A DNA stretch of 64,000 nucleotides from Bacteroidota bacterium (GCA_037128515.1 JBAXWF010000007.1:5021-69020), one strand, 5' to 3'; counted from the first letter of the stretch, positions 6,445 to 51,895 are shown. The notes: generated by a model from the sequence alone, not told the origin. Numbers and translations: made by a program.

Positions 6445-6765
6445 TTGAATCTATGCATGCAATTGGGAAAGGGTATGTTTGACTTCCGAAAGCTCATGTT
6501 TACAAAAAAGGTATATATGTTTGTGTCGAAGGGGCTCATGCACGAGCAGGGAAAGGGCATGTTTGAGTCGGGAAAGCATAAGTTTGAACTTCCGAGGTAT
6601 GTTTGGCCGGGGAAACCGTATGTTTGGGAAAGGAAACGGTATGTTTGAGTTGGGAAACCTAATGCATGGCGTGGGAAACCTCATGCACGGCCTGGGAAAC
6701 CTCATTCACGGCCGGGATTCCTTATGTTTGGCTTGGGATTCCTTATGTTTACGGGAAGATAGGGT
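6445..6765. repeat. tandem minisatellite A, about 14-15 units, predominantly 21-bp period
   Basis: GGGAAA/GGAAAC cores at 6549, 6570, 6611, 6632, 6653, 6674, 6695 and ATGTTT/ATGCA cores at 6475, 6496, 6517, 6538, 6559. There are 2-3 units with 1-2 nt indels. Confidence 0.9.
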
Positions 6766-6949
6766 GCTGAAGCCTGAGGAAAAGTTCATTTAATTGATTG
6801 AATATTAATGCGCAAACAAATTTTATTAAGAGTCTAAAAGCAATATTTTACGCAAGAAAGCTAAAAGGTAACGAATCGGGAAGATTATTAATTTGGATTA
6901 AGACAGGAATATGAAAGTTATTTGTTTTATTACAAGCAAATAGCAAATT

Positions 6950-7313
6950 GTGAAAAACAGATTAACAGCTTTGTAAAATCTCAAATAAATATAAATCCAG
7001 AAAAGAAGAAATTAAAAAAACAGATAACGAAACGCCTAAGAGAATTAATAAGAACACGGTAAAGAATTTGGATTAAAATCAAGCCTCATATCAATAGTTT
7101 GGAGGAATTGATTTCATGAGAATAGAAGCTCTGAGTTAATCAACTGTTTTGACATTATTGAGTGAAATAGGCCCAAATGGTTTTGCAAAATTTGCTACAG
7201 CAAAACAGTTTACATCCTGGCCAAGATTGGCTACAAACAATAAAATATCAGAAGGCAAAGTCCTAAGCCAAAGCATACCCAGCGGTGATTTTCGTTTAAA
7301 AAATTCTCAGTAA
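6950..7313 (+). mobile_element. IS110-family transposase remnant (C-terminal part, stops and truncation)
   Basis: Translation LLSEIGPNGFAKFATAKQFTSWPRLATNNKISEGKVLSQSIPSGDFRLKN matches the IS110/IS902 C-terminal domain consensus. Upstream frames are broken, and the fragment ends at the helicase gene stop. Confidence 0.5.
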
Positions 7314-8653
7314 CGGGTTTTCCCCGATTTATTATTCTTTTTTATACGTTTCCCGTTCTTTGTAAATTTAGGGTTACGTTTATACGCACTTCCGAGATTT
7401 ATTTTTTTGTTTTTCGCTATTTTTTCATGAAAAGCTCCTTGCGAGTCTTTCAAATCAGGTGGTTTCAAATAGGTTTTATCAAATAAATTCGTAGGTTTTT
7501 CTTCTTCTGTGTAAACTTTCGAAATAATAAGGTTTTCAGGTAAAGCTTCTTGAGGTATTTCTTTCAGCATCATTTTTTCTATTGCAAGCTGATATTCCAG
7601 CTCCCAAGGAGAAATAAACGAAATAGCCCCTCCCACCTTATCGGCTCTTCCTGTCCGGCCTATTCGGTGAATATAATCACCAGATGATTCAGGCATGTCA
7701 AAATTAATAACGTGCATAACATCGCTAATATCCATGCCACGAGCTATAACATCGGTAGCAATTAATATCGTAGTTACACCTTCTTCAAATTGTTTTAATG
7801 CTGTAAATCTAACATTGTGCGACCTGTTCGAATGAATCACACCCACCTGTCCCGGGAATATTTTATCAAAATGGTTATACAATTGATCGGCAATTTTTTT
7901 ATGACCAACAAAAACCAGAACCTTACTAAATTCTATATGCTCATTCATCAACAATTCCAGCAAATTCAACTTGGTGTTGTAATTCGGAACATGATATGCT
8001 TTTTGAAGTATTTTATCTATTGGTGTGCCATGCGGAGCAATTTCTATATAAAAAGGAAGTAGAATGTTTTCTGCAATAAAAGCATGTACATCTTTTGTTA
8101 AAGTTGCTGAAAACATAAGAGTTTGCCGTTTTGCAGGAACCAAATTCAGCAGCTGCGTTAATTCAAACCGAAAACCAAGACCAAACATCTTATCTACTTC
8201 ATCAATCACCAGTTTTTGAATGCTCTTTAAGCGCAAAACTCCTGTTAAGGTCAAATCTGTCAATCTACCGGGTGTCGACACCAAAATATCCACGCCATCA
8301 AAAACCATTTGTTTTTGCGTATTTATATTGGTGCCACCATAAATTCCTTCTGAACGCAACTGCGTATATTTGGTAAGTTTTCTCACTTCATTCAACAGCT
8401 GAACCACCAATTCACGTGTTGGTGCTATAATTAAAACACGAGGATCTTTTTGTTTCGAAGAAACCAATTGTCGAATAATCGGTAAAAGATATGCAAAAGT
8501 TTTTCCGGTACCGGTTTGTGCAATACCAACCACATTTCTGCCTGACATAATTACAGGAAATGCCTGTTTTTGAATAGGTGTTGGATAAATATAATCCAAT
8601 TCGGCCAAAGCCTTTAGTAAAGGAGGGTTTAAATTTAATTCGTCGAAAGTCAA
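7307..8653 (-). CDS. DEAD-box ATP-dependent RNA helicase (RhlE-like)
   Basis: Q motif (TPIQ), AQTGTGKT, DEVD, SAT, HRIGRTGR and a basic C-terminal tail. TTG start. Confidence 0.9.
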   Translation of the reverse strand: MTFDELNLNPPLLKALAELDYIYPTPIQKQAFPVIMSGRNVVGIAQTGTGKTFAYLLPIIRQLVSSKQKDPRVLIIAPTRELVVQLLNEVRKLTKYTQLRSEGIYGGTNINTQKQMVFDGVDILVSTPGRLTDLTLTGVLRLKSIQKLVIDEVDKMFGLGFRFELTQLLNLVPAKRQTLMFSATLTKDVHAFIAENILLPFYIEIAPHGTPIDKILQKAYHVPNYNTKLNLLELLMNEHIEFSKVLVFVGHKKIADQLYNHFDKIFPGQVGVIHSNRSHNVRFTALKQFEEGVTTILIATDVIARGMDISDVMHVINFDMPESSGDYIHRIGRTGRADKVGGAISFISPWELEYQLAIEKMMLKEIPQEALPENLIISKVYTEEEKPTNLFDKTYLKPPDLKDSQGAFHEKIAKNKKINLGSAYKRNPKFTKNGKRIKKNNKSGKTRY

Positions 8654-8675
8654 AATAATGATTTTAAATTCATTG

Positions 8676-8683
8676 CAAAAGTA
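8676..8683 (-). promoter_or_regulatory. -7 promoter box TACTTTTG for the helicase gene
   Basis: Exact TAnnTTTG on the minus strand, about 23 nt upstream of the start. Confidence 0.4.
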
Positions 8684-8823
8684 GTTATAATCTCAATAAG
8701 TCAGTATACTATTTACAGTTCAGATAAACTTAAAATTTGCAAGCTCGAATCCGCAATTAAACTATTATTTATCGATTTTGAATAATATTCACAAAATAAC
8801 TCATATATCTCAATAGTTTGGCG

Positions 8824-8831
8824 TATCTTTG
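8824..8831 (+). promoter_or_regulatory. -7 promoter box TATCTTTG
   Basis: Exact TAnnTTTG about 90 nt upstream of ORF 8921. Confidence 0.3.
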
Positions 8832-8920
8832 CATTCATCAAACTATCCCTTGGGCATAAAGACAAACACATGCACTTTTGCTACGATAAACTTAACTAAA
8901 TATACACAAAAAAACCCACA

Positions 8921-13808: not shown

Positions 13809-13832
13809 TAATTTTAAGGTACATTTATTTAA

Positions 13833-14027
13833 ATGAACACGGTTATGGAAAAACGTCATTCGCATCATGCATCGTCGGGGGCTGTTTATGGCTTGGGATT
13901 TTTGGGCGCTGCTATATATTATGTTTCGATGGCCTCGGGTTTTTGGATGGGTGCTTTGGGTTTGGTGAAAGCTTTGGTTTGGCCCGTGTTTTTGGTTTAT
14001 GAGGCTTTGAAGCATTTTGCAGGATAA
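13833..14027 (+). CDS. small membrane protein (two hydrophobic helices)
   Basis: 64-aa ORF containing GAVYGLGFLGAAIYYV and ALVWPVFLVYEAL helices. Confidence 0.4.
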   Translation: MNTVMEKRHSHHASSGAVYGLGFLGAAIYYVSMASGFWMGALGLVKALVWPVFLVYEALKHFAG

Positions 14028-14084
14028 GATTGGATTGCACGAGATTGTGGAACGTGGCAAAAGAGCTACTGTGACAGTGGGCTG

Positions 14085-14375
14085 TTATTTGTTGACTTTG
14101 TAGCCCAAGGCTTGGAGCTTGGACTCTAAGGAGGCTTTGGTTTTTAATGTGGTGTCGTAAACAATTGTTACTACTTTTTTTCGTAGGTGTGCTTTTACAA
14201 AACTAACTCCGTTTTCGGTCATCAGATTTTTCTCGATGGTGGCTTTGCCCTGTTCGCTTAAGGTATCTATTTTAATTTCTATTTGTGTGTTGGTGGTGCT
14301 TTTTTTGGCACAGCCGCTGTTGACAATGGACAGCATGGCGAATAGGCATAGTGTTGTAATGACTACTTTTTTCAT
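14085..14375 (-). CDS. lipoprotein with an HMA-like (ferredoxin-fold) domain lacking the CxxC metal site
   Basis: Lipobox LSIVNSGC. C-terminal pattern ..GV..v...l....v.i.yD......l...l...GYKV is typical of HMA domains, but there is no GMTCxxC. Confidence 0.5.
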   Translation of the reverse strand: MKKVVITTLCLFAMLSIVNSGCAKKSTTNTQIEIKIDTLSEQGKATIEKNLMTENGVSFVKAHLRKKVVTIVYDTTLKTKASLESKLQALGYKVNK

Positions 14376-14539
14376 TGTTTTTTCTATTTTTTTGAATAAC
14401 GCGGTGGTAAAATTACACTAAATAGTTTAATGCGGAATTGTGAAAAAGGGTTGGCAGGTGAATCAGTGGGAAGGGGGTGGGAAATACTAAACGTAATGAG
14501 ATGGGATAGATATGAGCAAAGGGCTGTAAACAGGGGGTT

Positions 14540-15060
14540 GTGTAACTATGACGGAGCAACATCAAGGAATGACGGAGTGACATCAAGGAATGACGACGCC
14601 ACATCAAGGAATGACGACGCAAGAACAAGGAATGACGGGGCAACATCAAGGAATGACGGGGCAACATCAAGGAATGACGGGGCAACATCAGGGAATGACG
14701 ACGCGATAACAAGAAATAACGGTGCAAGAACATGGAATGACGGTGCAACATCAAGGAATGACGGTGAGAGAACAAGGAATGACGGTGGATGTATAGGAAA
14801 TGACGGATGGGATGCATGGAATGGCGATGGGTGTATGCGAAAAGACGGAGGGTTTTTAGAAAATGACGAAGGATTTTCAAGTGATTTTGTTGGGGTAAAT
14901 TGTTTCTGAATTGGAAAAGTGCGATTATGCACCGAGAGAATTGGAAATGTTGGGGCGTTTTTTGGAAATGTAGGTGCGATTATTAGAAATGAAGATTGGA
15001 TTATTGAAATAAATGTAGCGACTATTGAAAATGGTGCAGGGATTTTTTGAAAAGTTGAAC
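14540..15060. repeat. tandem minisatellite B, 21-bp period (16 strict units, a degenerate gap, then about 6 units in the same register)
   Basis: The ATGACGG core recurs at 14548+21n for n=0..15. The TTGGAAATG-type units at 14941, 14962, 14983, 15004 and 15025 have their ATG at 14947+21n, in register with the first block. Confidence 0.95.
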
Positions 15061-15089
15061 TAAAAAAATGAAAGGGAGGGGGGGGAAAT

Positions 15090-15169
15090 AGGTAAGAGGT
15101 AAGAGGTAATTTTTTTTAATGAAGAATGAAGAGTGAAGAGTGAAGAATGAATGTCGATTGTCGATCTAT
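15090..15169. repeat. 7-bp microsatellites (AGGTAAG)x3 and (GAAGAGT/GAAGAAT-type)x7
   Basis: aggtaag aggtaag aggtaat at 15090-15110. gaagaat gaagagt gaagagt gaagaat gaatgtc gattgtc gatctat at 15121-15169. Confidence 0.9.
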
Positions 15170-15287
15170 AAAAAAGGTTGACCGTTTTAACTGGTTTAGT
15201 AATGCTATTTATTTTATATTTTTTTTGTTTTAATTTTTTTGTTGGAAACCGTTGAAACTGTTTTGGGAAGGGAAATTGTTTTGGTGA

Positions 15288-15307
15288 CCCACGAATGAAT
15301 TCGTGGG
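15288..15307. other. perfect palindrome / hairpin cccacgaat-ga-attcgtggg
   Basis: 9-nt arms that are exact reverse complements. Confidence 0.7.
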
Positions 15308-15518
15308 CTATTGTTTTTGGATGATAGGTTGAGGGTGTTTTTTGTTGGTTTTGTTGTTTTATTTTTTTAATTTAATAAGGTTATAAGGTTGATTTTTTGT
15401 GTTGCTTTTTTCTCTACTATGGTTGGCGGAAGGGAAATAAAGTTTTTTTTTTGTTTGAGTTGTTTTTTAAACCGTTGTGGGAAGGGATGGTGATTTATTA
15501 TAGTCTCAGGATTGAAAT

Positions 15519-15560
15519 AGGTAAGAGGTAATAGGCTATAGGCTATAGGCTATAGGTAAT
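15519..15560. repeat. 7-bp microsatellite (AGGTAAG/AGGTAAT/AGGCTAT) x6
   Basis: aggtaag aggtaat aggctat aggctat aggctat aggtaat. Confidence 0.9.
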
Positions 15561-15589
15561 ATGTTTTTTTAGTAGGAGGTAATTTGATT

Positions 15590-15790
15590 TAATGGCGGGG
15601 TGAAAGGGTTGTGGATGGTGGAAGGATGGCAGGGCACAGCGCCGGGAATGAAACAGGCTGGGGATGGCTCGCCCGCGCAAGGGACAGCAGCGAAAAGCCC
15701 GCAGCGCAGCGAGGACTTGTAGCGAATGGCCCGACCCGCAGGGTTGCGCCCAAAAGATGTTGAAGATGGGAGGTTGAAAGTTAAAAAATC
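15590..15790. other. GC-rich non-coding element of unknown function upstream of the GRE operon
   Basis: The stretch gcagggcacagcgccggg...gcccgcagcgcagcgaggacttgtagcgaatggcccgacccgcagggttgcgccc is embedded in AT-rich repeats. Only a spurious antisense ORF overlaps it. Confidence 0.4.
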
Positions 15791-15851
15791 GTATTTCGGC
15801 AATTAAATACCGAATTGTGTTGCTTTTTGTTTTTTTTATTTAAAATTGTAG

Positions 15852-15859
15852 TATTTTTG
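15852..15859 (+). promoter_or_regulatory. -7 promoter box TATTTTTG for the hpd-like operon
   Basis: Exact TAnnTTTG about 50 nt upstream of the ATG at 15908. Confidence 0.4.
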
Positions 15860-15907
15860 TAAATGTTTTAGAGAAAAGGTTACGCAAACCACTAACGGAA
15901 GGTGATT

Positions 15908-18592
15908 ATGAAAGATGATTTTTTAGCTTGTTCGACGGAGATTTATAACTACTACGGTGCGAAGCCGGAAGGCGACATTGAATTGCGCGAGCAAAAGCCG
16001 CAAGCGACGGCGCGTGTGGAAAAACAACGCGAAATGTATTTTGAAGCCAAGTCGTCGGCTTCGGTTGAGTTTCCGTATTGGTACACGCGTAGGTGGGAGG
16101 AATTGGATGGGGAGGTGGCGATTGTGCGCCGCGCGGAAGCGTTGAAAACGGGTTTTGAACATTTGACTCCGGCTGTTTTTCCGGGGGAACTGTTGGCGAT
16201 GCGTAAGGCGATTTATTTGCGGGGCTCCTACCCTATGCCGTGGTTGTCGGAGGGGTTTTTTCTGGCTAAGGAAGATGAGTTGTTTGTGCAAGCGCAAAAC
16301 GCGGGAAAAAATAGTGCCGACGAGGTTACTACTATGGGACAAGGCGGCGGGAATGTGACCCAAAGCGTTGGCAAGGTGATATCGATAGCAGGGAAATTTG
16401 GGTTGCGCAGCGAGGAAATGCCTATTTTGTTGAAAACGGCCAAAAAATGGTTTAACAAATCGGTGGATGATGTGGGGCACAAATATGAGCAGTTGGTTCC
16501 GGATTATCAGACCAAAGAGGAAATTATGCGTGCGGTGATTTGCATGTTTGATTCGGGTTACACGCTGCCTCAAGGCCGGGAGGTGATGAACTATTACTAT
16601 GGGCTGCAATATGGCATTGGGGGTATTAAAGGGATTTGCAACGAAAAGATTGGCGCAGCAGCGGGTAAACCGGGCATGGATAGGATTTATTTTTATAGGG
16701 CGGTGCACACGGTGCTGGAGGGTTTGCAAACCTGGATACTGAACTATGCTAAAGAGGCGCAACTGATGGCTTCGCTGGAAACAGACGCTGCGCAGAAACA
16801 GGAGTTTTTGGAAATGGAAGAGCGGCTGGTGTGGCTTTCGGAAAATCGTCCGCGTTCGTTTCATGATGCGTTGCAATTGATTTGGATTTTGCATGTGGCG
16901 GTGCTGAACGAGGATGCTATTTCGGGTTTGTCGCCCGGTCGCTTGGGTCAGGTGTTGTTTCCCTACTGGAAACGGGATATGGAAAAAGGTGTGCTGGACC
17001 GAGCTCGTTCGATTGAGTTGCTGGAGTGTATGCGTATGAAATTTACGGAATTGGATTGTTTTGCATCGATGGGTGTTGTGGGGGGTGTGTTGAGTGGAAA
17101 CACGTTTAACAACCTTTGTGTTGGGGGCTTGGATAAAGATGGCAATAGTGCTGCGAACGAACTGGAGGTGCTGATAATGGAATCGGCCATGAGTTGCGAT
17201 ACGCCGCAGCCTACGTTGAGTTTGCTGTTTGACGAGAAACTGCCGGAAGCGTTTTTGCTGAAAGGGGTGGATTGTACGAAAATTGGTACGGGGTATCCGG
17301 CTTGGGTGAACAACCGCGTGGGGATGGAGTTTTTGCTGAATAACTTTAAAAAGGAAGGCATGGATGTGGAAGAAGCGCGTGCATGGGCTATAGGGGGATG
17401 CTTGGAAACATCTGCCGGAAGCTGGATGCCGCTGGAGTTGGATGGGGAAACTTGGTTTATTCCGGGTGGTTCGGCACCGGCTACTAGTGTGGGTGTGCAT
17501 TTTATTTCGTTGCCCAAAGTGCTGGAAGCGGTTTTATATAACGGATTGGATAAACGCACGGGACGCCGTGTATATCCGGCACACGACCGCGAATTGACAT
17601 CATATAACGCGATTTGGGATGTGTTTAAAAACTATTTCAGCATTACGGTGGAGGTGCTTACGTATGCCAACAACATTCAACACGATGTGTGGGGCAAGGT
17701 GTCGCCATCTATCATCAACAGTATGTTGAAACCCGATTGTCTGGAGGTGGGAAAAGATATTAGCAACAAAGGCTGCCGCTATAACCGTACGTTTAATGTG
17801 GAGATTTGTGGTGGTGTGAATTTGGTAAACTCGCTGGCATCGATAAAAAAGAATGTGTTTGAAGAAAAAAACTTTACACTTACGGAACTAAAACTGGCTA
17901 TTGATAGCAACTTTGGTTATGTTTCGGCTTTGGAAACGGGCTCGTATAGTTTAACCGAACAGGTGAAAACGGATGATTATATGGATTGGTTAAAAATACA
18001 TAAGCAATGTATGGATGCTCCGAAATATGGGAACGATGATTTGTATGTGGATTCTATTTTTAAAGAATGGCAGATTTGGTTTAGTGGGATGTGCGAGCAC
18101 TATGTTTCTATTTACGACGAACCCTTGTATTCGTGCCAAATATCGGTTTCGACGCATGCCCCCATGGGTGCTGTTACGCTTGCCACAGCCGACGGACGTT
18201 TGTGCGGTACGACATTTTCGGATGGTTCGGTTTCGGCTTATCCGGGAACGGATAAAAACGGACCCTACGCTTTGTTTAATTCGGCGACATGTTATAATCA
18301 TGCTTTGTCGCAAAACTCGCAGCTCAATATGAAGATTCACCCTTCGGTGGTGCGAGGCCGCGAGGGATCGCGTAAGTTTTTGGAAATGATAAAAGCGTAT
18401 TTGCGTAAAGGTGCTTTTCATGCCCAGTTTAATGTGGTGGATTCGCGTATGCTGAAAGAAGCACAGAAAAACCCGGACAACTACAGAGGATTGATGGTGC
18501 GGGTGGCAGGTTTTACACAATATTGGGTGGAACTTGGCAAGCAGATACAAGACGAAGTTATTGCGCGGACAGAATATGAACAAATTAATTAA
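15908..18592 (+). CDS. hpdB: glycyl radical enzyme, 4-hydroxyphenylacetate decarboxylase large subunit type
   Basis: C-terminal RVAGF glycyl radical motif, GGCLE thiyl loop, and Ser/His/Glu positions at a constant offset to remembered 4-HPAD residues (see finding). ATG at 15908 is preferred over the track GTG at 15902. Confidence 0.8.
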   Translation: MKDDFLACSTEIYNYYGAKPEGDIELREQKPQATARVEKQREMYFEAKSSASVEFPYWYTRRWEELDGEVAIVRRAEALKTGFEHLTPAVFPGELLAMRKAIYLRGSYPMPWLSEGFFLAKEDELFVQAQNAGKNSADEVTTMGQGGGNVTQSVGKVISIAGKFGLRSEEMPILLKTAKKWFNKSVDDVGHKYEQLVPDYQTKEEIMRAVICMFDSGYTLPQGREVMNYYYGLQYGIGGIKGICNEKIGAAAGKPGMDRIYFYRAVHTVLEGLQTWILNYAKEAQLMASLETDAAQKQEFLEMEERLVWLSENRPRSFHDALQLIWILHVAVLNEDAISGLSPGRLGQVLFPYWKRDMEKGVLDRARSIELLECMRMKFTELDCFASMGVVGGVLSGNTFNNLCVGGLDKDGNSAANELEVLIMESAMSCDTPQPTLSLLFDEKLPEAFLLKGVDCTKIGTGYPAWVNNRVGMEFLLNNFKKEGMDVEEARAWAIGGCLETSAGSWMPLELDGETWFIPGGSAPATSVGVHFISLPKVLEAVLYNGLDKRTGRRVYPAHDRELTSYNAIWDVFKNYFSITVEVLTYANNIQHDVWGKVSPSIINSMLKPDCLEVGKDISNKGCRYNRTFNVEICGGVNLVNSLASIKKNVFEEKNFTLTELKLAIDSNFGYVSALETGSYSLTEQVKTDDYMDWLKIHKQCMDAPKYGNDDLYVDSIFKEWQIWFSGMCEHYVSIYDEPLYSCQISVSTHAPMGAVTLATADGRLCGTTFSDGSVSAYPGTDKNGPYALFNSATCYNHALSQNSQLNMKIHPSVVRGREGSRKFLEMIKAYLRKGAFHAQFNVVDSRMLKEAQKNPDNYRGLMVRVAGFTQYWVELGKQIQDEVIARTEYEQIN

Positions 18593-18607
18593 CAGGGAAA
18601 AGAAATT

Positions 18608-18841
18608 ATGATACACTACGATTGCAAATATTACCTTAGTTTGGATGTTTTTAAAGGTATTTGTAAACTCGATAAAAACAAAATAAATGCTGACGAGGTA
18701 TCGTGCGACAAATTTGAGAAAGCACAGAAATGCAAATTTTGTTCGAATTATACTGCTACCCAACCCAACTTGGGCAGGTGCAAGAACACGTATGATGCGT
18801 ATCCGGAAATGAATGCCGTGACATGCAATGAATACAAGTGA
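18608..18841 (+). CDS. hpdC: 4-hydroxyphenylacetate decarboxylase small (gamma) subunit type, two predicted [4Fe-4S] sites
   Basis: 77 aa beginning MIHYDCKYY. Ligand sets are H3/C6/C19/C33 and C42/C45/C58/C73. It lies between the GRE and activase genes as in hpdBCA. Confidence 0.7.
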   Translation: MIHYDCKYYLSLDVFKGICKLDKNKINADEVSCDKFEKAQKCKFCSNYTATQPNLGRCKNTYDAYPEMNAVTCNEYK

Positions 18842-24501: not shown

Positions 24502-24504
24502 ACC

Positions 24505-33097: not shown

Positions 33098-33140
33098 AAA
33101 ACATTTTTGATGGATAATCCTACAGCCTGTTTTTTTTTTA

Positions 33141-33148
33141 TACTTTTG
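33141..33148 (+). promoter_or_regulatory. -7 promoter box TACTTTTG for the sulfotransferase/flippase unit
   Basis: Exact TAnnTTTG 24 nt upstream of the ATG at 33172. Confidence 0.45.
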
Positions 33149-33171
33149 AAACGAAAATAAAAAGCGTATGG

Positions 33172-34227: not shown

Positions 34228-34237
34228 CAAACAGCAA

Positions 34238-35587: not shown

Positions 35588-35625
35588 ACCATAGTGAAAC
35601 CTAAAATCAATTATTGCAAAACAAC

Positions 35626-36654: not shown

Positions 36655-36658
36655 TGCA

Positions 36659-38241: not shown

Positions 38242-38277
38242 ACTGATTTTTTCAGTACCAAAAGTACAAAAAATAAA

Positions 38278-39015: not shown

Positions 39016-39027
39016 ACAGTTTTAGCT

Positions 39028-40080
39028 TTACAATTCGATAATTTCAGGACAGCAGATATTTTCCGTTTCTGTATAAACCGACCCCCACGACAATCCAACG
39101 CCAAATCCACAAATGAGCATCTTTAATTTCTGTGCATTCACCTTTTGTCGCAATTCCGAAACAATGGTTGTTGGTATAGAAGCCGAACTGGTATTTCCGA
39201 ATCTATTCAAAGAATAAGGCACTTTTTCGGGTATCAGTTTTAGTTTTTTTCGAACCGACTCGTTAATCAGTAAATTTGCCTGATGAAACAAAAAATAATC
39301 GATACTATCAATTGGAATAGTGAAATGATTCAGCAAAGCAATAACACTGGGAGCCACCTCGCGAAGCGAAAAATTAAAAACTGCATATCCATCAAGCGCA
39401 ATTTGTAGTTTATTTCTGATAATTCCTTTGCCGTAACTTTTATATTCGAAAGATTTTTTGGTAGGATAATTTCGCATACCACCATCGGGAATAATAATGG
39501 CTTTGTAGCCCGAACCGTCTGATTGCAAATTGAAACACATTGGCGAAGCGGTTTCATCATATTCCAAAGCGGTTGCGGCACCTGCATCGCCAAACAAAGG
39601 ATACGACGTTTTATCGCGATACGATGCCAGGGGAGTTACGTCGCCAATTAGCATCAGGGCTTTTTTTATGTTGCAATGCGCAATGTAATTTGCAATGGTT
39701 GATAATCCATACACATAGCCGGAGCAACCCAAATTTATATCAATTGCCAAGCACGATTTTGGCAATCCCAGTTTGTCCTGAAGTATACATGCTGTAGCCG
39801 GAAGCAAATAATCACGCGACTGTGATACAAAAACAATCAGTTCGATTTCTTCTTTGTTCCACCGAAGTTCTTCAATCAGCTTTTTTGCTGCTTCAAAGCA
39901 CAAATCGGAGGCGGTCATTCCTTTGGTAACAATGCGTTTTTCCACAACACCTATTTTCTTTATCAACAGTTCACGCTCTTTGGCACCAATCCATTTGTAA
40001 TCTTTATTTGCTACAATGTTTTTCGGAACGCAAGTGCTTATGCCGGCAATTCGGGTGTTGGGAATGCTAAAAAATGCCAT
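39028..40080 (-). CDS. 3-oxoacyl-ACP synthase III (FabH-like)
   Basis: LGCSGYVYGL active-site Cys, HQAN, GNTSSASIP. Confidence 0.8.
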   Translation of the reverse strand: MAFFSIPNTRIAGISTCVPKNIVANKDYKWIGAKERELLIKKIGVVEKRIVTKGMTASDLCFEAAKKLIEELRWNKEEIELIVFVSQSRDYLLPATACILQDKLGLPKSCLAIDINLGCSGYVYGLSTIANYIAHCNIKKALMLIGDVTPLASYRDKTSYPLFGDAGAATALEYDETASPMCFNLQSDGSGYKAIIIPDGGMRNYPTKKSFEYKSYGKGIIRNKLQIALDGYAVFNFSLREVAPSVIALLNHFTIPIDSIDYFLFHQANLLINESVRKKLKLIPEKVPYSLNRFGNTSSASIPTTIVSELRQKVNAQKLKMLICGFGVGLSWGSVYTETENICCPEIIEL

Positions 40081-40316
40081 TATTTTGCCGCCTTTAATAA
40101 GACAATATTAAATAAATCCTGAACTGTTTTTGATTTCTGAAAATCTTCGGCTACCAACATCACATCGTATTCGCTGTCTACTAATGCTATCATAGTAAGT
40201 GCATTTACAGAATTCCAATCGAATATTTCGCGAAAGCGACTTTCGGGTTTCATTTTGCCGGGTTCAAGGTCTTCGAACTCATTTTCAATTTTTAGTATAA
40301 AATCTGCTATATTCAT
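40080..40316 (-). CDS. acyl carrier protein
   Basis: 78 aa, acidic, with a DWNSVNAL phosphopantetheine-site-like motif. TAATG overlap with the KAS III start. Confidence 0.65.
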   Translation of the reverse strand: MNIADFILKIENEFEDLEPGKMKPESRFREIFDWNSVNALTMIALVDSEYDVMLVAEDFQKSKTVQDLFNIVLLKAAK

Positions 40317-40369
40317 ATAGTGTTTACATTATTTTCAAAGGTAATGCATTTTTTTAAGTTGTACGATTA

Positions 40370-41902
40370 TCATTCAAAAAATCCTTCAAATGAATTTCGA
40401 AGTTTAAAATGAGTTCCAAACAATCTGTTGATAATTTTGAACGAATACAAAACAATATTGGCTTCAATAGGGAATTTAAGATTTTTGTGTTTAAAGCGCC
40501 AACGAGTTAAATTATAAAACATCATGTTTAAAACAAATACAAATGGGCGGAAATACCAAACAGCATTTTTATATAAATGACTATTGGCTAAGGGCAAATA
40601 AAATTCGAGAAAACGCCAGGCTTGGTAGTATAATTTTTTCTCCACCCAAGGCATTCTTGAATGTTTCCAGGTTTCATCGGCCCAAGAATTTAATGAGTTG
40701 GGAGGATGATAGCCGCTTTCTAAAGCCAATTTAAACAAATCGGTTCCCGGATAAGGTGTATAGAAACTTAAAAGCGCTCTAAAATTTGAATCAATAAGCT
40801 TCGCATCCATTAATAAATTCAATGTGGCATCAAAATCACGTTTCGGATGAACCGGAAAACAAACCATAACAGTATAAAAAGTTTGAATACCGTGCTTACT
40901 AAACAAATTGGAACAGGCAATATTATCTTCCACTTTGTTGTTTTTGGCTAATAAATCAAGAACAACCTGGTCGCCCGACTCCGCTCCAATAGATATCATG
41001 CATCCACCAGATTTGCGAATGATATTAAAATCATCGTCTTTAAAATATTTCAGAAAATGAGAGGCATGACCTTGGGTTATCCATTTTAAATTGAGCTGTC
41101 GACGAATTATTTCATGGCAAAGTTGAAGAACAAACTCCCGATTTACGAAAAAATTATCATCATCAAATTTCACTCCATCAATCTGACCAACCTTAATAAA
41201 GTACTCCAGTTCGTCAATAATTTCGGGCACAGTTTTGTGATACCATTTTTGTTGATACACCAATGCTAAACTACAAAAACTACATTTGTAAGGGCAGCCT
41301 TGTGTTGTAATATAACGGATGGACCGTTCGGCATAATGATTTTTGTAAATATATTTGCGAATATCAATAAGCGTGTAATCTATTTTGGGAAATGAAAACG
41401 GATCGGTATATTTTTCGCGAGGGTTTACAATGATTTTTTGATTGTGCTTATAACCCAATCCAGGAATGGTTTCAACACTGCTATTATTCAATAAAGCTAT
41501 GATAAGATTGCGCAATGGCACTTCGCCCTGACCTGTTATAACAAAATCGACGAGGTGGTTTTCTAGAGTTTCTTCGGGAAGTATGGTAGCATGCCAACCA
41601 CCCCAAACAATAGGAGATTGAGTAATTTGTTTAACAATAGTTGAAAAACCTAACGCACCAACCAGTTGAAAACCTGTCATCGAAGAAACACCAACAAGCA
41701 ACAGTCTATCTTTAAATTCTTCAATTATGGGTTGATAATCGGGCGAAACAAATTCATCAATAAGAATAATATTGAGGTTAAGATCGCGAAGATTTCTTTC
41801 CAAAAAAAGCAATGAATAAGGTACCCTGGCTTTTTTGTTGCCCGACTTCCAAGGCACCGGATGAAAAAGTATGATGGTATCTTTTATCATTATTGTTTGC
41901 AC
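40370..41902 (-). CDS. B12-binding-domain radical SAM protein
   Basis: N-terminal cobalamin-binding-like domain followed by TTQGCPYKCSFCS (CX3CX2C). Confidence 0.8.
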   Translation of the reverse strand: MQTIMIKDTIILFHPVPWKSGNKKARVPYSLLFLERNLRDLNLNIILIDEFVSPDYQPIIEEFKDRLLLVGVSSMTGFQLVGALGFSTIVKQITQSPIVWGGWHATILPEETLENHLVDFVITGQGEVPLRNLIIALLNNSSVETIPGLGYKHNQKIIVNPREKYTDPFSFPKIDYTLIDIRKYIYKNHYAERSIRYITTQGCPYKCSFCSLALVYQQKWYHKTVPEIIDELEYFIKVGQIDGVKFDDDNFFVNREFVLQLCHEIIRRQLNLKWITQGHASHFLKYFKDDDFNIIRKSGGCMISIGAESGDQVVLDLLAKNNKVEDNIACSNLFSKHGIQTFYTVMVCFPVHPKRDFDATLNLLMDAKLIDSNFRALLSFYTPYPGTDLFKLALESGYHPPNSLNSWADETWKHSRMPWVEKKLYYQAWRFLEFYLPLANSHLYKNAVWYFRPFVFVLNMMFYNLTRWRFKHKNLKFPIEANIVLYSFKIINRLFGTHFKLRNSFEGFFE

Positions 41903-41991
41903 AACTTAAATTGAAATAACTATTGTTTATAAAACGTAAAAAACACAAATTAACTGGTACTAGAAAAATATATCAAACTGTAGGTACAAAT

Positions 41992-42411
41992 TTATTTACT
42001 AATGAATGATTCAATTGCCAAACGATAGGAATCGAGCCCGAAACCCGAAATAATACCCCGGCAACCCGCCGCTATTAATGATATGTGGCGAAACTCTTCG
42101 CGAGAAAAAATATTAGAAATATGCACTTCAATCACCGGTGTAGCTATAGCTTTCACTGCATCGGCAATTGCAACCGAGGTGTGAGTATACCCACCGGCAT
42201 TCAAAATAATACCATCGTAGGCAAAACCTGTTTCATGAATTTTGTTAATAATCTCGCCTTCCACATTGGTTTGAAAATACTCAAGACGATGGCCATTAAA
42301 TTTCACCACCAACTGAGCAAAGTACTCGGTAAATGTTTTTTCACCATAAATATTCTTTTCTCTAACTCCAATGAGATTAAGATTTGGTCCGTTGATAATA
42401 ATAATTTTCAT
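41992..42411 (-). CDS. aroQ: type II 3-dehydroquinate dehydratase
   Basis: INGPNLNLIGVRE, NAGGYTHTSVA, EVHISNI. Confidence 0.9.
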   Translation of the reverse strand: MKIIIINGPNLNLIGVREKNIYGEKTFTEYFAQLVVKFNGHRLEYFQTNVEGEIINKIHETGFAYDGIILNAGGYTHTSVAIADAVKAIATPVIEVHISNIFSREEFRHISLIAAGCRGIISGFGLDSYRLAIESFISK

Positions 42412-42477
42412 GCTATAAAGTTTTACGCCTATTCAAAGCAGATTTGTGTTTTAGGGTGATTTCCCATAAGGATTGAT

Positions 42478-42725
42478 GTGCTACTTTTAACTACAAATAT
42501 ACACTATTTGGTTTACACAATTAGAACATACACTATTTCATGTCAACCGAAGCACATTTTTTACAAAGCAAACCACTTCATAGCCAAGCATAGCTCTTTT
42601 CGCTTCAAACATAGCATTTTTCATATTAAACATGAGGTCTCCAGCATCAAACATAACACCCTTCTGTTCAAATAGGAGGTCAGGTGCTCAAGCATGAAAC
42701 ATTTTTAGACAAACATGAAACAAGT
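42478..42725. repeat. tandem minisatellite D: about 8 units of 21 bp (42560-42725), preceded by a 30-bp direct repeat
   Basis: AAAC/AAGC-AT core at 42586, 42607, 42628, 42649, 42670, 42691 and 42712. ATACACTATTT is repeated at 42497 and 42527. Confidence 0.8.
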
Positions 42726-42773
42726 GTATTGCTTTTAATTGCAATAAAATTGCAATACGGTTAAAATAAATCA

Positions 42774-42781
42774 TACATTTG
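42774..42781 (+). promoter_or_regulatory. -7 promoter box TACATTTG preceding the riboswitch
   Basis: Exact TAnnTTTG about 10 nt upstream of the riboswitch 5' end. Confidence 0.45.
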
Positions 42782-42787
42782 TCACAG

Positions 42788-42880
42788 TTTTCTTAATAGG
42801 GGTGCCTTAATACATACGGGCTGAGATTAAACCCTCTGAACCTGATCCGGATAATGCCGGCGTAGGGAGTAAGGGTAAAC
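42788..42880 (+). promoter_or_regulatory. TPP (THI-box) riboswitch
   Basis: aggggtgcc...ggctgagat...accctctgaacctgatccggataatgccggcgtagggag matches the conserved THI element core (GGGGUGC, CUGAGA, ACCUGAUCCGGAUAAUGCCGGCG, AGGGA). Confidence 0.9.
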
Positions 42881-42940
42881 TTAATGGATGGTATTTGCCT
42901 CTGACACCATCGCGAAGTTTAACAGAAAAATAAAAAAGTC

Positions 42941-47863: not shown

Positions 47864-50608
47864 GTGTTGAAAAACCTGATTATATTTTTACAAAAAAAAT
47901 ATAACCCTCTGCTATCCAAAGTTGATAATGACCTTGGATGGATTTCTTTTTGGTATGCTTGCATCCGAAGAGTGGCTTTAGCTTTGCCTGTTGTTTTCCA
48001 AATGTTTTTCTTCTCAAAAAGTAAATCCGGTTTAAATCGTTACTATAAAAAACTTTTATTCCCTGTTTTAATACTATTTCTTCTTTCGGTTCAACCTGTG
48101 TTTGTTCGGGGGCAAAATAATAACGACAAAAATACAGAAACAGCCAGTCAGGGTAAAAATAAAAAAGCCTTCGACGAATGGAAAGAAATTTTTAAACTGA
48201 GAGGTACTTTAAACAAAAACCAATATGGCAGCCGCTATTTTATGGGCTTGTTCGATGGGCGGTTTATTGGCCCCAACGACCAGGATAATTACGGCATACG
48301 CACCTACAGCACCGCTTGGGATTATCTGATTTTTGGCAACAGTTTGCTTTCGATGCTTATCAACATGGGTTTTACGGCCGACAACATCAATTTGATATCG
48401 AGCGGCAACGTGCCCAATCATCATTCGTTTTATTTGGGTTGCATTGGGCATTATGCTATTTCGCAGGAGAAATCGTGGGTGGACTCTACTTTTAACAGAA
48501 CGGTGGGCAAAAATGTGGCTGTCGACAAGCCATTTAAAGCCTCGATTCCACGTTTGGGTATCGATTCAACTGCAGTTAAAGTTGACTTGGGTGGGTTTTA
48601 TATTAAACGGAAAGTGGAAAAGAAAACCGTTTACGATACCATAGCATTTCCGCAGATTGAAGGCACGGGTTCGTGGAAAGATGCCAACAATTTTGATTTG
48701 GTTTACGAATGGATGGAGCTATTTTTTAATGCGTACCGCGATAGTCTTGATATCAGCAAGCGGCAGTTTGCAAAAAAAACACCGAAAGAACTTCAACAAT
48801 GCATTTTGCAACGATTCAATACTAAAAAATATCTTGAAGCCAACAATTTGACTGAGGACGAATTGAATTATAAAATTGTGGATGGCTACAAGAATGACAT
48901 CTTTGATTTGGTGCATCAGCCCAATGAAAAGGTTTTTAGAATGGGACAATACGAAATGTTTAGGTATTTTAACGATGTGTATTGGCGCGATTTGAACGAA
49001 ACTGTGGTGATGATTGGCCGCGGACTGAACGATGCTGGCGAGCTGGAGCCATACTCTTATGTGTGGAAACCTTCGGACAAGAAAAACCCGGTGTGGCATT
49101 GCGCTTTTCAGTTCGACAAAGACCGCGAAACCAATCCGCGCTCGGGTTTAATAAATTATGTGATGGTGCCTTATGGCACCAAAGGCCGAAATATGCCCAC
49201 GGTGGTGCCGAACGATTTGCCTCCATTTTCGCAATTCGAGGGGGTGGTGATTTGGAGCGACAACTGCAAAAAGCAATCGTATTCGAACAAAGACGACTTG
49301 TGGCTGAACACGCTTAATGGGCGCATGATTGACCGCAATTTCAAATGTTATCCCTACGAGGTGGGTATTTTGCCGCTGAACGACGATGGCACGGTGGATG
49401 GTATTTATAAAATTTATGTTTGGAAAGACGATAAAGATTACTGGGCGTATATTTTTTGCGGAAAGCACGCGGGAGTTAGAGGTGGCAAGCCCGGAAAATC
49501 GTTTGTTGACCAGGTGGATAATTTCCGCAAAGATTATAACTTTTCGGATTATTGGTATTTTTATAAAGACGTGGATTTTGAGAAGGATGTGGTGAAGAAC
49601 ATGCCGCAGTTTATTGGCGATTTGGAAAGTTTGGAAAGTAGGGTTACGGGCATTAAAGGCAAAACCATGCCCAAAGTGTGTATTCCCATTGTAACGCCCA
49701 ACGATAAAAATCCTAAAAAGCCGCGTATTGATAATTTCTATGTTTTGCTGAACGCCGACAACACAGGAACCGTTTTCCCAGATAAAATTAATTTCTTTTG
49801 GAAAATTGATGTGTACGACGATTATGCGAACAATATGCTGGTGAAGAAAAAATCGGTGATTATTAAAATAAACAAACAGGAAATTCCATTGGATAAATTC
49901 GACGACTATTTACGAACCAACAACTTGAGCGGTTCGCAGGTGCGCAAAGCCAACGATCAGTTTGAAACCGATTTGAAAAATAGTAAAAAGAAAGACCCTG
50001 TGGTGAATTTAAACACTTTGTACAACAACCATGTGTATAATTTGGCCAACTCTGACGAAACCCAAAACCTGATTAACCAAGTGAAAGAAGACCTGATGGC
50101 GGTGCGCTACGAGTTGCCCAAAGCCGAACGGACCCTAGAGCTGGCACAGGACGAAAATGCAGATAAACTCAAAGACTTAAAAAAACAACTCGACGAACTG
50201 GAACTGACAAAAAAAACCAAGAAACCTATTTATGCTGAAACCAAAGCGCAATACGATAAACTGAAAGAAGGGGTGGATAAAAAACTTTTTAGCTACAACA
50301 AACTGGTGGCAAAAGAAACCTCCTTGGTTGATTTGTTGCAACTATCGCAAGAGCGATTGGATATTAATTTAAACAACGATTTGGCCAACATCAACTCGCA
50401 CATTGCTTTTTTGGAAAGCGAACGCGCCAAATACCAAACACAGCTGGACCAACTAAAAGCCGAAGGCAAAACCGAAACCGATAACTACCGTCAGGTGCAA
50501 ACATCAATTGATAACAAACGACAAGAACTGATTGAAGCCGAAAACAAACGCGACAAGGTGCAACAGGAAATAGAGAATCAGAAGAAATTGCAGTCGGAAA
50601 AAGAGTGA
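47864..50608 (+). CDS. large hypothetical membrane-anchored protein with C-terminal coiled coil
   Basis: 914-aa uninterrupted ORF. N-terminal hydrophobic segments; the last ~200 aa are K/E/Q/L-rich heptad-like. No catalytic motif recognised. Confidence 0.6.
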   Translation: MLKNLIIFLQKKYNPLLSKVDNDLGWISFWYACIRRVALALPVVFQMFFFSKSKSGLNRYYKKLLFPVLILFLLSVQPVFVRGQNNNDKNTETASQGKNKKAFDEWKEIFKLRGTLNKNQYGSRYFMGLFDGRFIGPNDQDNYGIRTYSTAWDYLIFGNSLLSMLINMGFTADNINLISSGNVPNHHSFYLGCIGHYAISQEKSWVDSTFNRTVGKNVAVDKPFKASIPRLGIDSTAVKVDLGGFYIKRKVEKKTVYDTIAFPQIEGTGSWKDANNFDLVYEWMELFFNAYRDSLDISKRQFAKKTPKELQQCILQRFNTKKYLEANNLTEDELNYKIVDGYKNDIFDLVHQPNEKVFRMGQYEMFRYFNDVYWRDLNETVVMIGRGLNDAGELEPYSYVWKPSDKKNPVWHCAFQFDKDRETNPRSGLINYVMVPYGTKGRNMPTVVPNDLPPFSQFEGVVIWSDNCKKQSYSNKDDLWLNTLNGRMIDRNFKCYPYEVGILPLNDDGTVDGIYKIYVWKDDKDYWAYIFCGKHAGVRGGKPGKSFVDQVDNFRKDYNFSDYWYFYKDVDFEKDVVKNMPQFIGDLESLESRVTGIKGKTMPKVCIPIVTPNDKNPKKPRIDNFYVLLNADNTGTVFPDKINFFWKIDVYDDYANNMLVKKKSVIIKINKQEIPLDKFDDYLRTNNLSGSQVRKANDQFETDLKNSKKKDPVVNLNTLYNNHVYNLANSDETQNLINQVKEDLMAVRYELPKAERTLELAQDENADKLKDLKKQLDELELTKKTKKPIYAETKAQYDKLKEGVDKKLFSYNKLVAKETSLVDLLQLSQERLDINLNNDLANINSHIAFLESERAKYQTQLDQLKAEGKTETDNYRQVQTSIDNKRQELIEAENKRDKVQQEIENQKKLQSEKE

Positions 50609-50611
50609 CGA

Positions 50612-50715
50612 AGGTAATAGGTAAGAGGTAAGAGGTAATAGGTAAGAGGTAAGAGGTAATAGGTAAGAGGTAATAGGTAATAGTTGTGTCCATTCTTCCG
50701 ACTTCCGACTTTCTT
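50612..50715. repeat. 7-bp microsatellites: (AGGTAAT/AGGTAAG)x10 (50612-50681) and (CTTCCGA)x2-3 (50695-50715)
   Basis: Read directly. The array starts 4 nt after the TGA of the 914-aa ORF and has a 21-bp super-period (AAT-AAG-AAG). Confidence 0.95.
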
Positions 50716-50915
50716 TTTACCACAGTGAACACAGAGGAAAAACAGCGTTACACGGAGAAATTATTCTGCATTCAAAAAAAATTATTTCATTTTTTTTTAT
50801 GAAAATGTTTTTTTTATTTGGAATAATTTAGTTTCTTTGTGTATCGAAAACTAAAACATACAAACCCGATGATCTATCGTTCTGACATATCATGTTCTGA
50901 AAGGCCTATTTCCGT

Positions 50916-50925
50916 GGGGGGGGGG
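50916..50925. repeat. homopolymeric G10 tract
   Basis: tccgt-gggggggggg-tattt in an AT-rich intergenic region. Confidence 0.9.
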
Positions 50926-51132
50926 TATTTTTAACCTTTTACTATTTCATTGCAATCTAACTTCTAGCGTAAACAAAACCAAGGCTTGGTTTTTTACGCA
51001 ACTTTTTCGGTTATCGGGCGCTTGCCTTGCCCATACTTTTTATTTTTTTACTTTATACAGTAGTTTTTTTCATACCAAAGAGAAACAATTTCATAATTAA
51101 CTAAATTCATAAACCTAAAAAAAGTAAAGCTT

Positions 51133-51657
51133 ATGCCATTAGACAATTTAATTTCAATTTCGTTCACTGCAGCAGAAGTAACAACTTTAGAAACTTCGTT
51201 AGCTGCCATCGAAGCCATTATCAACCCCAAAGTGGTGAACCTCACTCCCAAAGAAAGGCAACGCTACGGCAAAATGGGCGACGAAACCGAAAATTTTGCC
51301 GTAAAAACCGTTACCTACACCGAGCAAAACCCAGAAATCATTCCGTTTTTTCTCGATGCAGCCGAATTAAAAATTGATATCGAAGCCAGAAAAGTGATTG
51401 ATCCTATTTTAAAACGGATCAGCATTATTTTTGAAAAACTTGACGATACTCATAAAGTTATTGGTTTTGATTTGTTTAACCAGGTGATTTCTATTTATCG
51501 TAACGTCAAAATGCTTTCGAAACAAAACGTGCCGGGTATATCGGTGATTTATGAAGATCTGAAAAAACAGTTTCCGCATGTAGTGCTTCCGGTGATTAAT
51601 TTCACCCCCGATCCCGCATTGGATGCCACTGTTAACGACGGAACAACTCCTTCGTAA
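51133..51657 (+). CDS. hypothetical protein
   Basis: 174-aa ORF with its own terminator downstream. No recognised motif. Confidence 0.5.
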   Translation: MPLDNLISISFTAAEVTTLETSLAAIEAIINPKVVNLTPKERQRYGKMGDETENFAVKTVTYTEQNPEIIPFFLDAAELKIDIEARKVIDPILKRISIIFEKLDDTHKVIGFDLFNQVISIYRNVKMLSKQNVPGISVIYEDLKKQFPHVVLPVINFTPDPALDATVNDGTTPS

Positions 51658-51699
51658 TAAACTAAAAAACACGTTCATTGCAACAATAAAAAGGCTTAT

Positions 51700-51895
51700 G
51701 CAGTATAGCAACGGCCTGCAAGCAGTCGGTCGACGGTATGCAGGGCGTTAGCCAACGGGCTGCAGGCAGTTATTAACGGCCTACAGCCCGTTAACCAACG
51801 GCCTGTAGGGTGTTCATCAACTCCCTTCAGGCCGTATACTAACGGCCTGAAGGGAGTATACCAACGGCCTGAAGGCCGTTATAAAACAACATCGA
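51700..51895. repeat. tandem minisatellite E, about 8-9 units of 22 bp, rich in inverted repeats
   Basis: ACGG core at 51711, 51733, 51755, 51776, 51798, (51820), 51842 and 51864. Perfect 15-bp hairpin at 51821-51856. Confidence 0.9.

Follow-up and report, generated by a model that had tools for sequence, protein, structure and literature searches.

Why should one stretch of a bacterial genome carry a whole series of intergenic tandem arrays that agree in the length of their units and share almost nothing of their sequence? The question is raised by 64,000 nucleotides of a Bacteroidota bacterium (GCA_037128515.1, JBAXWF010000007.1:5021-69020), which we call the window, meaning the whole stretch of DNA that was analysed. 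An initial annotation of this DNA had noticed five minisatellites with units of 21 or 22 bp, together with several 7-bp arrays, between positions 6445 and 51895. It had offered three candidate explanations: slippage or recombination that is specific to the lineage and favours a certain unit length, arrays that bind proteins or structure the nucleoid, and minisatellites carried by decayed MITEs (miniature transposable elements with inverted repeats). We refer to the minisatellites as array 1 (6466-6760), array 2 (14548-15075), array 3 (32020-32189), array 4 (42561-42728) and array 5 (51700-51887). The first of the three candidates fits best. The arrays are probably near-neutral, non-coding variable-number tandem repeats (VNTRs) derived from local spacer DNA, in a clade with a preference for expanding units of 21 bp.

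The preference for 21 bp is specific to the clade. The window and contigs of its relatives (669 kb in all) were compared, under the same settings, with 523 kb of control metagenome contigs that were chosen solely for containing (AGGTAAG)3 and that range in GC content from 34 to 64%. Among minisatellites with units of at least 10 bp, 15 of 19 in the window and its relatives had a period of 21, 22 or 42 bp, against 1 of 17 in the control (Fisher p = 1e-5). Although 11 more heptamer arrays are present in the control contigs, these show no 21-bp peak. Richness in heptamers is therefore general, the 21-bp class is specific to the clade, and the clustering of periods of 21-22 bp is not a product of chance, as had been suspected from the window. 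The period statistics draw on 29 loci from metagenome-assembled genomes of Bacteroidales whose overlap with the window is limited to the glycyl radical enzyme and its activase, and which were not used for orthologous comparison. When loci L004-L034 were scanned (L033 and L034 lie outside the Bacteroidales), 13 of the 17 periodic segments fell at 7, 14, 21, 22, 28 or 42 bp, with units unrelated to those of the window.

The bias acts at the stage of expansion. After heptamer multiples had been re-assigned, the calls made by Tandem Repeats Finder were split by copy number. Duplications of fewer than three copies had similarly broad length spectra in both sets, with 21 bp accounting for 5 of 65 in the clade and 8 of 80 in the control. 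Among arrays of at least three copies, 21 bp accounted for 10 of 17 in the clade against 2 of 30 in the control. Since the low-copy spectra are alike and the longer arrays are biased towards 21 bp, the preference bears on the expansion or persistence of arrays, and not on the first duplication. Searches of the literature turned up no account of 21-bp minisatellites as a class in Bacteroidota.

Comparison with close relatives shows where the arrays came from. The organism itself is an uncultured member of the Bacteroidales that encodes type IX secretion proteins, and its named homologues include those of a Tenuifilaceae bacterium. Its species is not part of the species-representative genome set, in which the best match to its glycyl radical enzyme is 86% identical. 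Homologue searches and exact-protein look-ups yielded three closer species, here called B, C and D; looking up the window's exact EF-G protein and scanning metagenomes with the radical-SAM protein brought no lead. Elongation factor EF-G is 94% identical to that of the window in species B and 93% in species C. Species D is a sister species collinear with the window (RlmB 89%, EF-G 88% and helicase 74% identical), and it lacks arrays 1, 2 and 4 as well as the (AGGTAAK)10 array at 50612-50683. At the site of array 4, it has a 278-bp spacer with a single copy of GCTTAAAACATAG and a conserved riboswitch; this proto-unit lies just upstream of the start codon of the dehydroquinase gene. At the site of the (AGGTAAK)10 array, it has a non-repetitive AGGAAGC between flanks that are conserved on both sides. 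Because these empty sites hold a single GCTTAAAACATAG and AGGAAGC, the arrays are amplified resident sequence and not insertions. At the site of array 1, species D has two extra genes and no array, the window having lost both genes. Species D also lacks, in its entirety, the island with array 2 and the glycyl radical enzyme.

The sister species has arrays of its own. One, in the orthologous spacer between rlmB and an EamA-family gene, has a 21-bp period and units that differ from those of the window. A second, of 21/42 bp and 98% identical, lies beside genes missing from the window, and a third, of about 21 units, lies upstream of a secreted-protein gene specific to species D. Arrays 1, 2 and 5, and two arrays of species D (D42 and D50), are located at junctions of gene gain or loss. 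The arrays are thus not conserved, and the complete turnover between sister species makes it most likely that they are neutral or nearly so.

Copy number appears to change by whole units in the assemblies of the sister species. The initial annotation had proposed that orthologous loci be compared between strains, and in the short-read assemblies of species D the array in the rlmB-EamA spacer has eight units in two assemblies and nine in two others, the extra unit duplicating its neighbour. A second spacer of this species differs by 105 bp (5 x 21) between assemblies, as judged from gene coordinates.

Gradients also run along the interior of the arrays. The consensus was said to drift from one end of an array to the other, with neighbouring units the most similar, and identity does fall with the distance between units (in array 2, from 0.66 to 0.40). 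GC content also declines toward one end of an array (in array 2, from 0.5 to 0.2-0.3). This gradient of identity, together with the one-sided decay in GC, points to the local addition of new units and the AT-biased ageing of old ones. The units abut head-to-tail with no spacers between them. Register is generally kept, as the annotation had it, the exception being array 1, which slips by 2 bp near 6590.

We therefore propose a simple life history for these arrays, in which slippage or unequal exchange is the presumed process and neutrality the presumed condition. An ordinary piece of local spacer would be duplicated in tandem, after which replication slippage and/or unequal exchange between sister strands would lengthen or shorten the array by entire units. 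New copies would be made in one part of the array, while older copies would decay by AT-biased substitution with their register kept; such local birth and ageing would give rise to a drifting consensus in which neighbours are most alike. Arrays would accumulate in unconstrained spacers, such as convergent gene ends, junctions of gene gain or loss, and the edge of an acquired island. First duplications would occur at many lengths, just as they do in other lineages. Beyond about three copies, nearly only units of 7 and 21 bp would be amplified or maintained, and occasionally units of 22 bp, or of 42 bp as a doublet.

How secure are the arrays themselves? Tandem Repeats Finder was run on the window, and the units were also written out in register. 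The program called one 21-bp array at 6596-6717, a second at 14548-14991, whose core holds 11.4 copies, and a third at 32071-32181. It also called a 22/44-bp array at 51700-51881, and 7-bp arrays at 15090-15109, 15118-15151, 15531-15556, 50612-50683 and 50695-50711. Written in register, arrays 1, 2, 3 and 5 comprise about 14, 25, 8 and 8.5 units. An autocorrelation scan of all periods from 4 to 60 bp, in 105-bp windows and with a threshold near the maximum of 20 local shuffles, returned significant periods of 7, 14, 21, 22, 28, 42 and 44 bp only. Two borderline signals, at 30 and 54 bp, were found besides, and every signal lay within loci that had been reported. The tandem arrays are real, and the observation stands on firm statistical ground. 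All of those in the window, whether of 7, 21 or 22 bp, are intergenic and lie outside long open reading frames (ORFs), as had been stated. Four of the five minisatellites are clear. Array 4 was missed by Tandem Repeats Finder and is borderline in the autocorrelation scan (0.52); we count it as real but decayed because its unit profile matches that of array 1 on the opposite strand.

One might still ask whether the arrays, or their 21-bp period, are an artefact of metagenome assembly with k-mers of 21. Short-read De Bruijn-graph assemblers with a minimum k of 21 produced most contigs, and several Logan contigs break within arrays. Against this, the units are degenerate and individually distinct, and are not the perfect loops of an assembly graph. 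Arrays 3 and 4 are reproduced in a second assembly, since the independent Logan assembly L001 is 100% identical to window positions 31992-42860. The arrays of the sister species recur across samples and assemblers, and the control contigs, from the same kinds of assembler, show no 21-bp peak. Two further 21-bp arrays (L006 and L011) lie on contigs of 0.38 and 1.3 Mb, for which the record names suggest a long-read origin. On the identity with L001, the recurrence in many samples and the absence of the peak from the control, we reject the artefact and give it next to no credence.

The units of different arrays are unrelated, with one exception in the window. Profiles of the units were compared in all circular shifts and on both strands, and similarity was confined to arrays 1 and 4 and, among relatives, to a single orthologous pair; an AT-rich, decayed array is recognisably orthologous in species B and C (z = 6.7). 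The profiles of arrays 1 and 4 match on opposite strands with z = 5.4, and their local alignment scores 44, where the null gives 23 +/- 3. The two loci, 36 kb apart, have the core AAAG-N3-ATGTTTGA in common. The initial claim that unit sequences are unrelated consequently holds for every pair but this one, whose members belong to a single unit family and are inverted relative to each other. The same comparison leads us to reject a binding motif that all arrays would share.

Nor do the arrays form a single family with periods in multiples of seven, as had been claimed. The 21-bp units have no internal 7-bp periodicity in a test of self-similarity at lag 7, which disposes of the idea that they are decayed heptamer arrays. 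Periods of 14, 28 and 35 bp are rare, and with no 7-bp sub-period there is no simple 7n series. What stands of the claim is that heptamer arrays also duplicate in blocks of 21 bp, as seen at 50612 in the window and in locus L017. The array at 50612-50683 (+ strand), composed of (AGGTAAT AGGTAAG AGGTAAG) x3.4, reaches 98% matches with a lag of 21, compared with about 90% with a lag of 7, so the super-period noted for one 7-bp array is confirmed. The 7-bp and 21-bp arrays are two separate classes, linked by the 21-bp duplication steps of the heptamer arrays.

A unit family in inverted orientation invites the thought that the arrays travelled, either as decayed mobile elements of the MITE type or with horizontally acquired DNA. 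Arrays 1 and 4 would be two such copies; array 2 lies inside an island missing from the sister species, several arrays sit at junctions of gene gain or loss, and (AGGTAAG)n is present at three loci in the window. However, a search for terminal inverted repeats found none bracketing any array, and self-comparison of the window revealed no dispersed flank, leader or tail sequence, self-BLAST returning only runs of AGGTAAG. The unit differs at nearly every locus, and alignments of filled and empty sites show resident sequence that has expanded, not an insertion with a target-site duplication. The region upstream of the glycyl-radical-enzyme gene is not conserved among other carriers of that gene. 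An origin in mobile elements is accordingly very unlikely, and the proposal of decayed MITEs fails.

A second alternative is that selection keeps the period and not the sequence. In that case they would serve to bind protein or to structure DNA: either a nucleoid-associated or regulatory protein with a two-turn (21-bp) footprint would bind cooperatively along them, or their in-phase repeats would curve the DNA, for nucleoid organisation or the insulation of genes. The period is exactly two helical turns and is retained while the sequence turns over, a 21-bp array with unrelated units lies downstream of rlmB in three related species, and a bias acting on persistence or expansion is a pattern that selection for arrays could yield. 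Set against these observations, a common motif is limited to arrays 1 and 4, four arrays of the window are missing from the collinear sister species with no further change at their sites, and the rlmB-EamA spacer, in which two relatives have different 21-bp arrays, measures just 62 bp in a more distant third. The arrays occur in all kinds of context, and their edges decay into AT-rich sequence. Predicted bending per unit is not above that of shuffled units (mean percentile about 0.43), in a wedge model with parameters that make it indicative only; as far as such a model goes, selected intrinsic curvature is rejected, the units being no more bent than their own shuffles. We consider a binding or structural role unlikely, and this second candidate of the annotation is not upheld.

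Some of the arrays might instead modulate the expression of their neighbours, as multiplied promoter-like boxes or terminator hairpins whose copy number tunes adjacent genes in the manner of a phase switch or rheostat. The Bacteroidetes -7 promoter motif TAnnTTTG occurs seven times on the + strand of array 1 and twice on the - strand of array 4, where it faces the dehydroquinase gene. The proto-unit of array 4 in the sister species, as described above, lies just before the start codon of the same gene. Array 5 strings together stable hairpins immediately 3' of a gene, heptamer arrays follow directly after stop codons, and segments of BrickBuilt, a MITE of Porphyromonas gingivalis, have promoter activity (PMC4596501). 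Yet the motif was not found in arrays 2, 3 or 5 or in the heptamer arrays, so that promoter boxes are rejected as a general property. The boxes of array 1 are directed at a convergent gene's 3' end and no + strand gene lies downstream of them, the sister species does without these arrays, and the 21-bp rule is left unexplained. A modulating role is thus improbable, a little more so than a role in binding or structure.

Other functions were tried and rejected. Coding repeats of seven amino acids do not account for the arrays: array 2 is open in three frames simultaneously, yet some of its single units hold stop codons, array 1 has its 2-bp shift, and array 5 has a period of 22 bp. ORFs called across arrays in the sister species had no Pfam match. 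The arrays are non-coding. ORFs of 92-158 amino acids, likewise without a Pfam match, have been annotated by gene callers in public assemblies across arrays at L035 7499-7777, L038 4307-4606, L044 1459-1752 and window 14413-14932, and the length of such an ORF follows the copy number of its array (92 against 99 amino acids); these are spurious proteins that are now in protein databases. Structured RNA is not a general property either. Rfam matched no family on any array, and RNA folding gave z-scores near 0 against shuffles for all arrays except array 5, which alone folds better than its shuffles. The arrays are not clustered regularly interspaced short palindromic repeats (CRISPR), since the units abut without spacers and Rfam found no CRISPR family.

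Several points weigh against a near-neutral origin through preferential expansion of 21-bp units. The control set is heterogeneous metagenome DNA and not a set of matched genomes, and the period spectrum covers the window and contigs of relatives, not a whole genome. The differences in copy number in species D come from short-read metagenome assemblies, which can mis-size repeats, and the 105-bp case comes from gene offsets. For the window's own arrays no variation in copy number was seen, the only other assemblies of the species being identical and perhaps drawn from the same sample. Any mechanism for the sharp preference for 21 bp is conjectural. Three related species have a 21-bp array just downstream of rlmB with unrelated units; species B has a 27-unit 21/42-bp array and three heptamer runs there. 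Under pure neutrality, such recurrence needs either a persistent array with complete turnover of its units or a hot spot, and there may be selection for having an array downstream of rlmB. Finally, the unit of arrays 1 and 4 holds TAnnTTTG and could function. For individual arrays, function is hinted at most strongly by the recurrence at rlmB and by the promoter-like boxes that arrays 1 and 4 contain.

We nevertheless favour near-neutral VNTRs with a clade-specific preference in expansion, and ask what could set the length. Twenty-one base pairs equal two turns of B-DNA (2 x 10.5), which is the smallest whole number of base pairs at an integer number of turns, and also 3 x 7. We tentatively entertain the idea, without holding it to be the likelier case, that a Bacteroidales clade near the Tenuifilaceae has a molecular ruler that preferentially amplifies units of exactly two helical turns, whatever their sequence. 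Such a ruler might reside in the step size of the replisome, in flap processing, or in a nucleoid protein that favours misalignment of DNA by whole helical turns. If so, the arrays would be the genomic footprint of that machinery, preferentially marking young spacer DNA at junctions of gene gain or loss. There is no sign of a new functional system, and the 21-bp bias looks like a mutational quirk rather than a functional system.

The finding matters because the length spectrum of bacterial tandem repeats is usually seen as unstructured, save for the multiple-of-three rule in genes and the excess of heptamers. Arrays that are unrelated in sequence, of 21 bp, and biased at the stage of expansion point to a specific physical constraint on slippage or unequal exchange, one that is open to experiment. 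In practical terms, the arrays break short-read contigs, and they represent ready strain-typing loci for these uncultured Bacteroidales.

As a kind, the arrays belong with bacterial VNTRs and long simple sequence repeats; what is new here is the quantised 21-bp unit. VNTRs, the minisatellites used as loci for multiple-locus VNTR analysis, evolve by slipped-strand mispairing. The arrays of the window and its relatives resemble them in their head-to-tail units, the similarity of neighbours, rapid gain and loss between species, and the apparent changes of copy number by whole units in the short-read assemblies of the sister species. They differ in that the VNTRs of well-studied bacteria are heterogeneous in unit length, many lying within genes with periods divisible by three, whereas the long arrays of this clade are all intergenic, nearly all of exactly 21 bp, and unrelated in sequence. 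Iterons, the 17-22-bp direct repeats of plasmids and phages, are spaced about two helical turns apart and are bound by Rep initiators. A period of 21-22 bp likewise sets the same face of the helix on one side, but iterons are few (3-7), have one sequence per replicon, and lie beside a rep gene and an AT-rich or DnaA-box region. The neighbours of the arrays in the window are housekeeping or secretion genes, with neither a rep gene nor an AT-rich or DnaA-box region of that kind among them, and units differ between arrays. Array 5 alone is reminiscent of repetitive extragenic palindromes (REP) and bacterial interspersed mosaic elements, having a GC-rich palindromic unit and stable hairpins 3' of a gene. 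REP elements, however, are dispersed in hundreds of copies, while the unit of array 5 is found, within the window, in one tandem array only.

Heptamer repeats are already known from cyanobacteria as short tandemly repeated repetitive (STRR) sequences, with TAACTGA present in Beggiatoaceae, Cyanobacteria and some Bacteroidetes, and GGGGATT in Xanthomonas and Nostoc (PMC4692102). An excess of heptanucleotide repeats in repeat-rich prokaryotes has been published and explained by polymerase slippage (Mrazek et al. 2007, via PMC4679880; PMC4692102). The 7-bp arrays of the window resemble these heptanucleotide long simple sequence repeats: they are intergenic, mostly have at least three copies, adjoin arrays of different heptamers, and often lie near start or stop codons. 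Heptamer arrays also recur in the relatives and in the contigs selected for (AGGTAAG)3. The published class comprises units of 5-11 nt, however, and the 21/22-bp arrays, with no 7-bp sub-period, fall outside it. The closest parallel in the phylum is BrickBuilt of P. gingivalis, which has one 23-nt unit at 19 loci, a conserved leader and tail, and terminal inverted repeats that match insertion sequence elements (PMC4596501). Like the arrays described here, it is an intergenic, spacer-less minisatellite of some twenty-odd base pairs that attracts spurious ORF calls, and it expands and contracts by whole units between strains, as the sister-species arrays appear to do. It differs in that the arrays of the window lack a leader, tail or terminal inverted repeats, originated in situ, and have their own unit at nearly every locus.

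The individual arrays vary in composition and setting. Array 1 (+ strand) consists of degenerate 21-bp units that begin as GGGAAA-N4-ATGTTTG-N4 and drift to AAACCTCATGCACGGCCTGGG, with a match of 0.74 at lag 21. On one side of it is a methyltransferase gene with a DUF2196 remnant, and on the other the 3' end of a DEAD-box helicase gene. The DUF2196 sequence at 6177-6363 appears to be frameshifted, as it matches the intact 64-aa protein of the sister species in two tblastn segments in different frames. The array is situated within a decayed region, which lacks two neighbours that the sister species has, a 158-aa gene and a VF530 gene. Array 3 (+ strand; unit GTTTCCACCATTGCTTTAGAA) takes up about 90% of the 185-bp spacer between the convergent rlmB and EamA-family genes. 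Array 4 (- strand) has about eight strongly decayed 21-bp units of the array 1 family, with ATGTTTGA as their - strand core, and lies upstream of a type II dehydroquinase gene, between that gene and a thiamine pyrophosphate (TPP) riboswitch. This riboswitch (42788-42885, + strand; 74.8 bits) is upstream of a TonB-dependent receptor gene and has a nearly identical counterpart in the sister species. Within it, at position 42860, two Logan contigs of the window's species end.

Array 2 (+ strand) is built of 21-bp units AATGACGGNGCAACATCAAGG with a match of 0.90 at lag 21. Its core (14548-14787) is homogeneous, and the units toward its 3' side are decayed and AT-rich. It occupies part of a 1.5-kb divergent spacer upstream of a gene for a glycyl radical enzyme of the pyruvate-formate-lyase-like kind. 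Besides array 2, the surrounding region (13830-19760) contains genes for a small HMA-like lipoprotein, the glycyl radical enzyme and its activase, as well as a membrane ORF of 64 aa, and is missing whole from the collinear sister species, in which a PorP/SprF gene abuts an asparagine synthase gene. It has a higher GC content (0.40-0.48) and an extreme GC skew (+0.43 and +0.32), even over the coding region, and gives the impression of an island acquired by horizontal transfer. A G-rich stretch at 15666-15740 (+), some 160 bp upstream of the glycyl-radical-enzyme gene, gives a full-length but sub-threshold match to the Rfam family Flavo-1 (RF01705; 30.3 bits, where the gathering score is 42; E = 6e-4). 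There is also a weak match to Acido-Lenti-1 on a hairpin at 15288-15318.

The same spacer contains heptamer arrays. What had been described as one 7-bp array at 15090-15169 is a pair of adjoining microsatellites at 15084-15152 (+ strand), with (AGGTAAG) x3.5 at 15084-15110, of which three copies fall in the described interval, and (AATGAAG/AGTGAAG) x5 at 15116-15152. A further microsatellite at 15516-15560 (+) has AGGTAAK x2 followed by (ATAGGCT) x4. The presence of 7-bp arrays was correctly noted, the slightest being a minimal repeat of (CTTCCGA) x2.4 at 50695-50711 (+). Far beyond this spacer, the exact 21-mer (AGGTAAG)3 was found in more than 120 metagenome contigs among the matches listed, of very diverse GC content and some of them possibly eukaryotic (loci L057-L136 are of this kind). 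AGGTAAG is therefore a recurrent heptamer repeat well beyond the lineage.

Array 5, for which no strand is given, is made of 22-bp units with a 44-bp super-period and the palindromic unit AACGGCCTGnAGGCCGTT, which makes it a string of hairpins. It is situated 3' of a 174-aa ORF. The unit pattern matches the window 12 times, where 0.09 would be expected, and each of these matches lies inside the array; the array's RNA fold z-scores are -6.5 and -9.7 against shuffles. It is a sub-type, an amplified hairpin that was probably once a terminator. In a non-coding stretch of about 400 bp upstream of the 174-aa ORF is a run of 10 G (50916-50925). About 280 bp up to this run are conserved in the sister species, whose contig L046 ends exactly in it. 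The run could be a homopolymer tract for phase variation, or part of a conserved leader or small RNA.

The heptamer array at 50612-50683 begins 4 bp past the stop codon of a 914-aa ORF, and together with the CTTCCGA repeat exemplifies an arrangement that recurs elsewhere. Directly after stop codons, a purine-rich heptamer run is followed by a different, pyrimidine-rich one at L008 12690-12790, L031 12670-12780, window 50612-50711 and L054 10745-10830. The pairs take the forms AAAGTGA... then CTTCGGA..., AGGTAAG... then CTTCCGA..., and GGAGTTG... then TCCCAAG...; in L008 and L031, the second run is of the type CTTCNGA, like that at 50695-50711. The paired runs of the window example fold no better than shuffles (z = -0.06). 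The 914-aa ORF itself (47864-50608) has no Pfam match and is kept in the sister species (77% identity over 813 aa). The borderline 30-bp signal of the autocorrelation scan falls at its 3' end (50468-50614), and is probably a coiled-coil-like repeat in the coding sequence.

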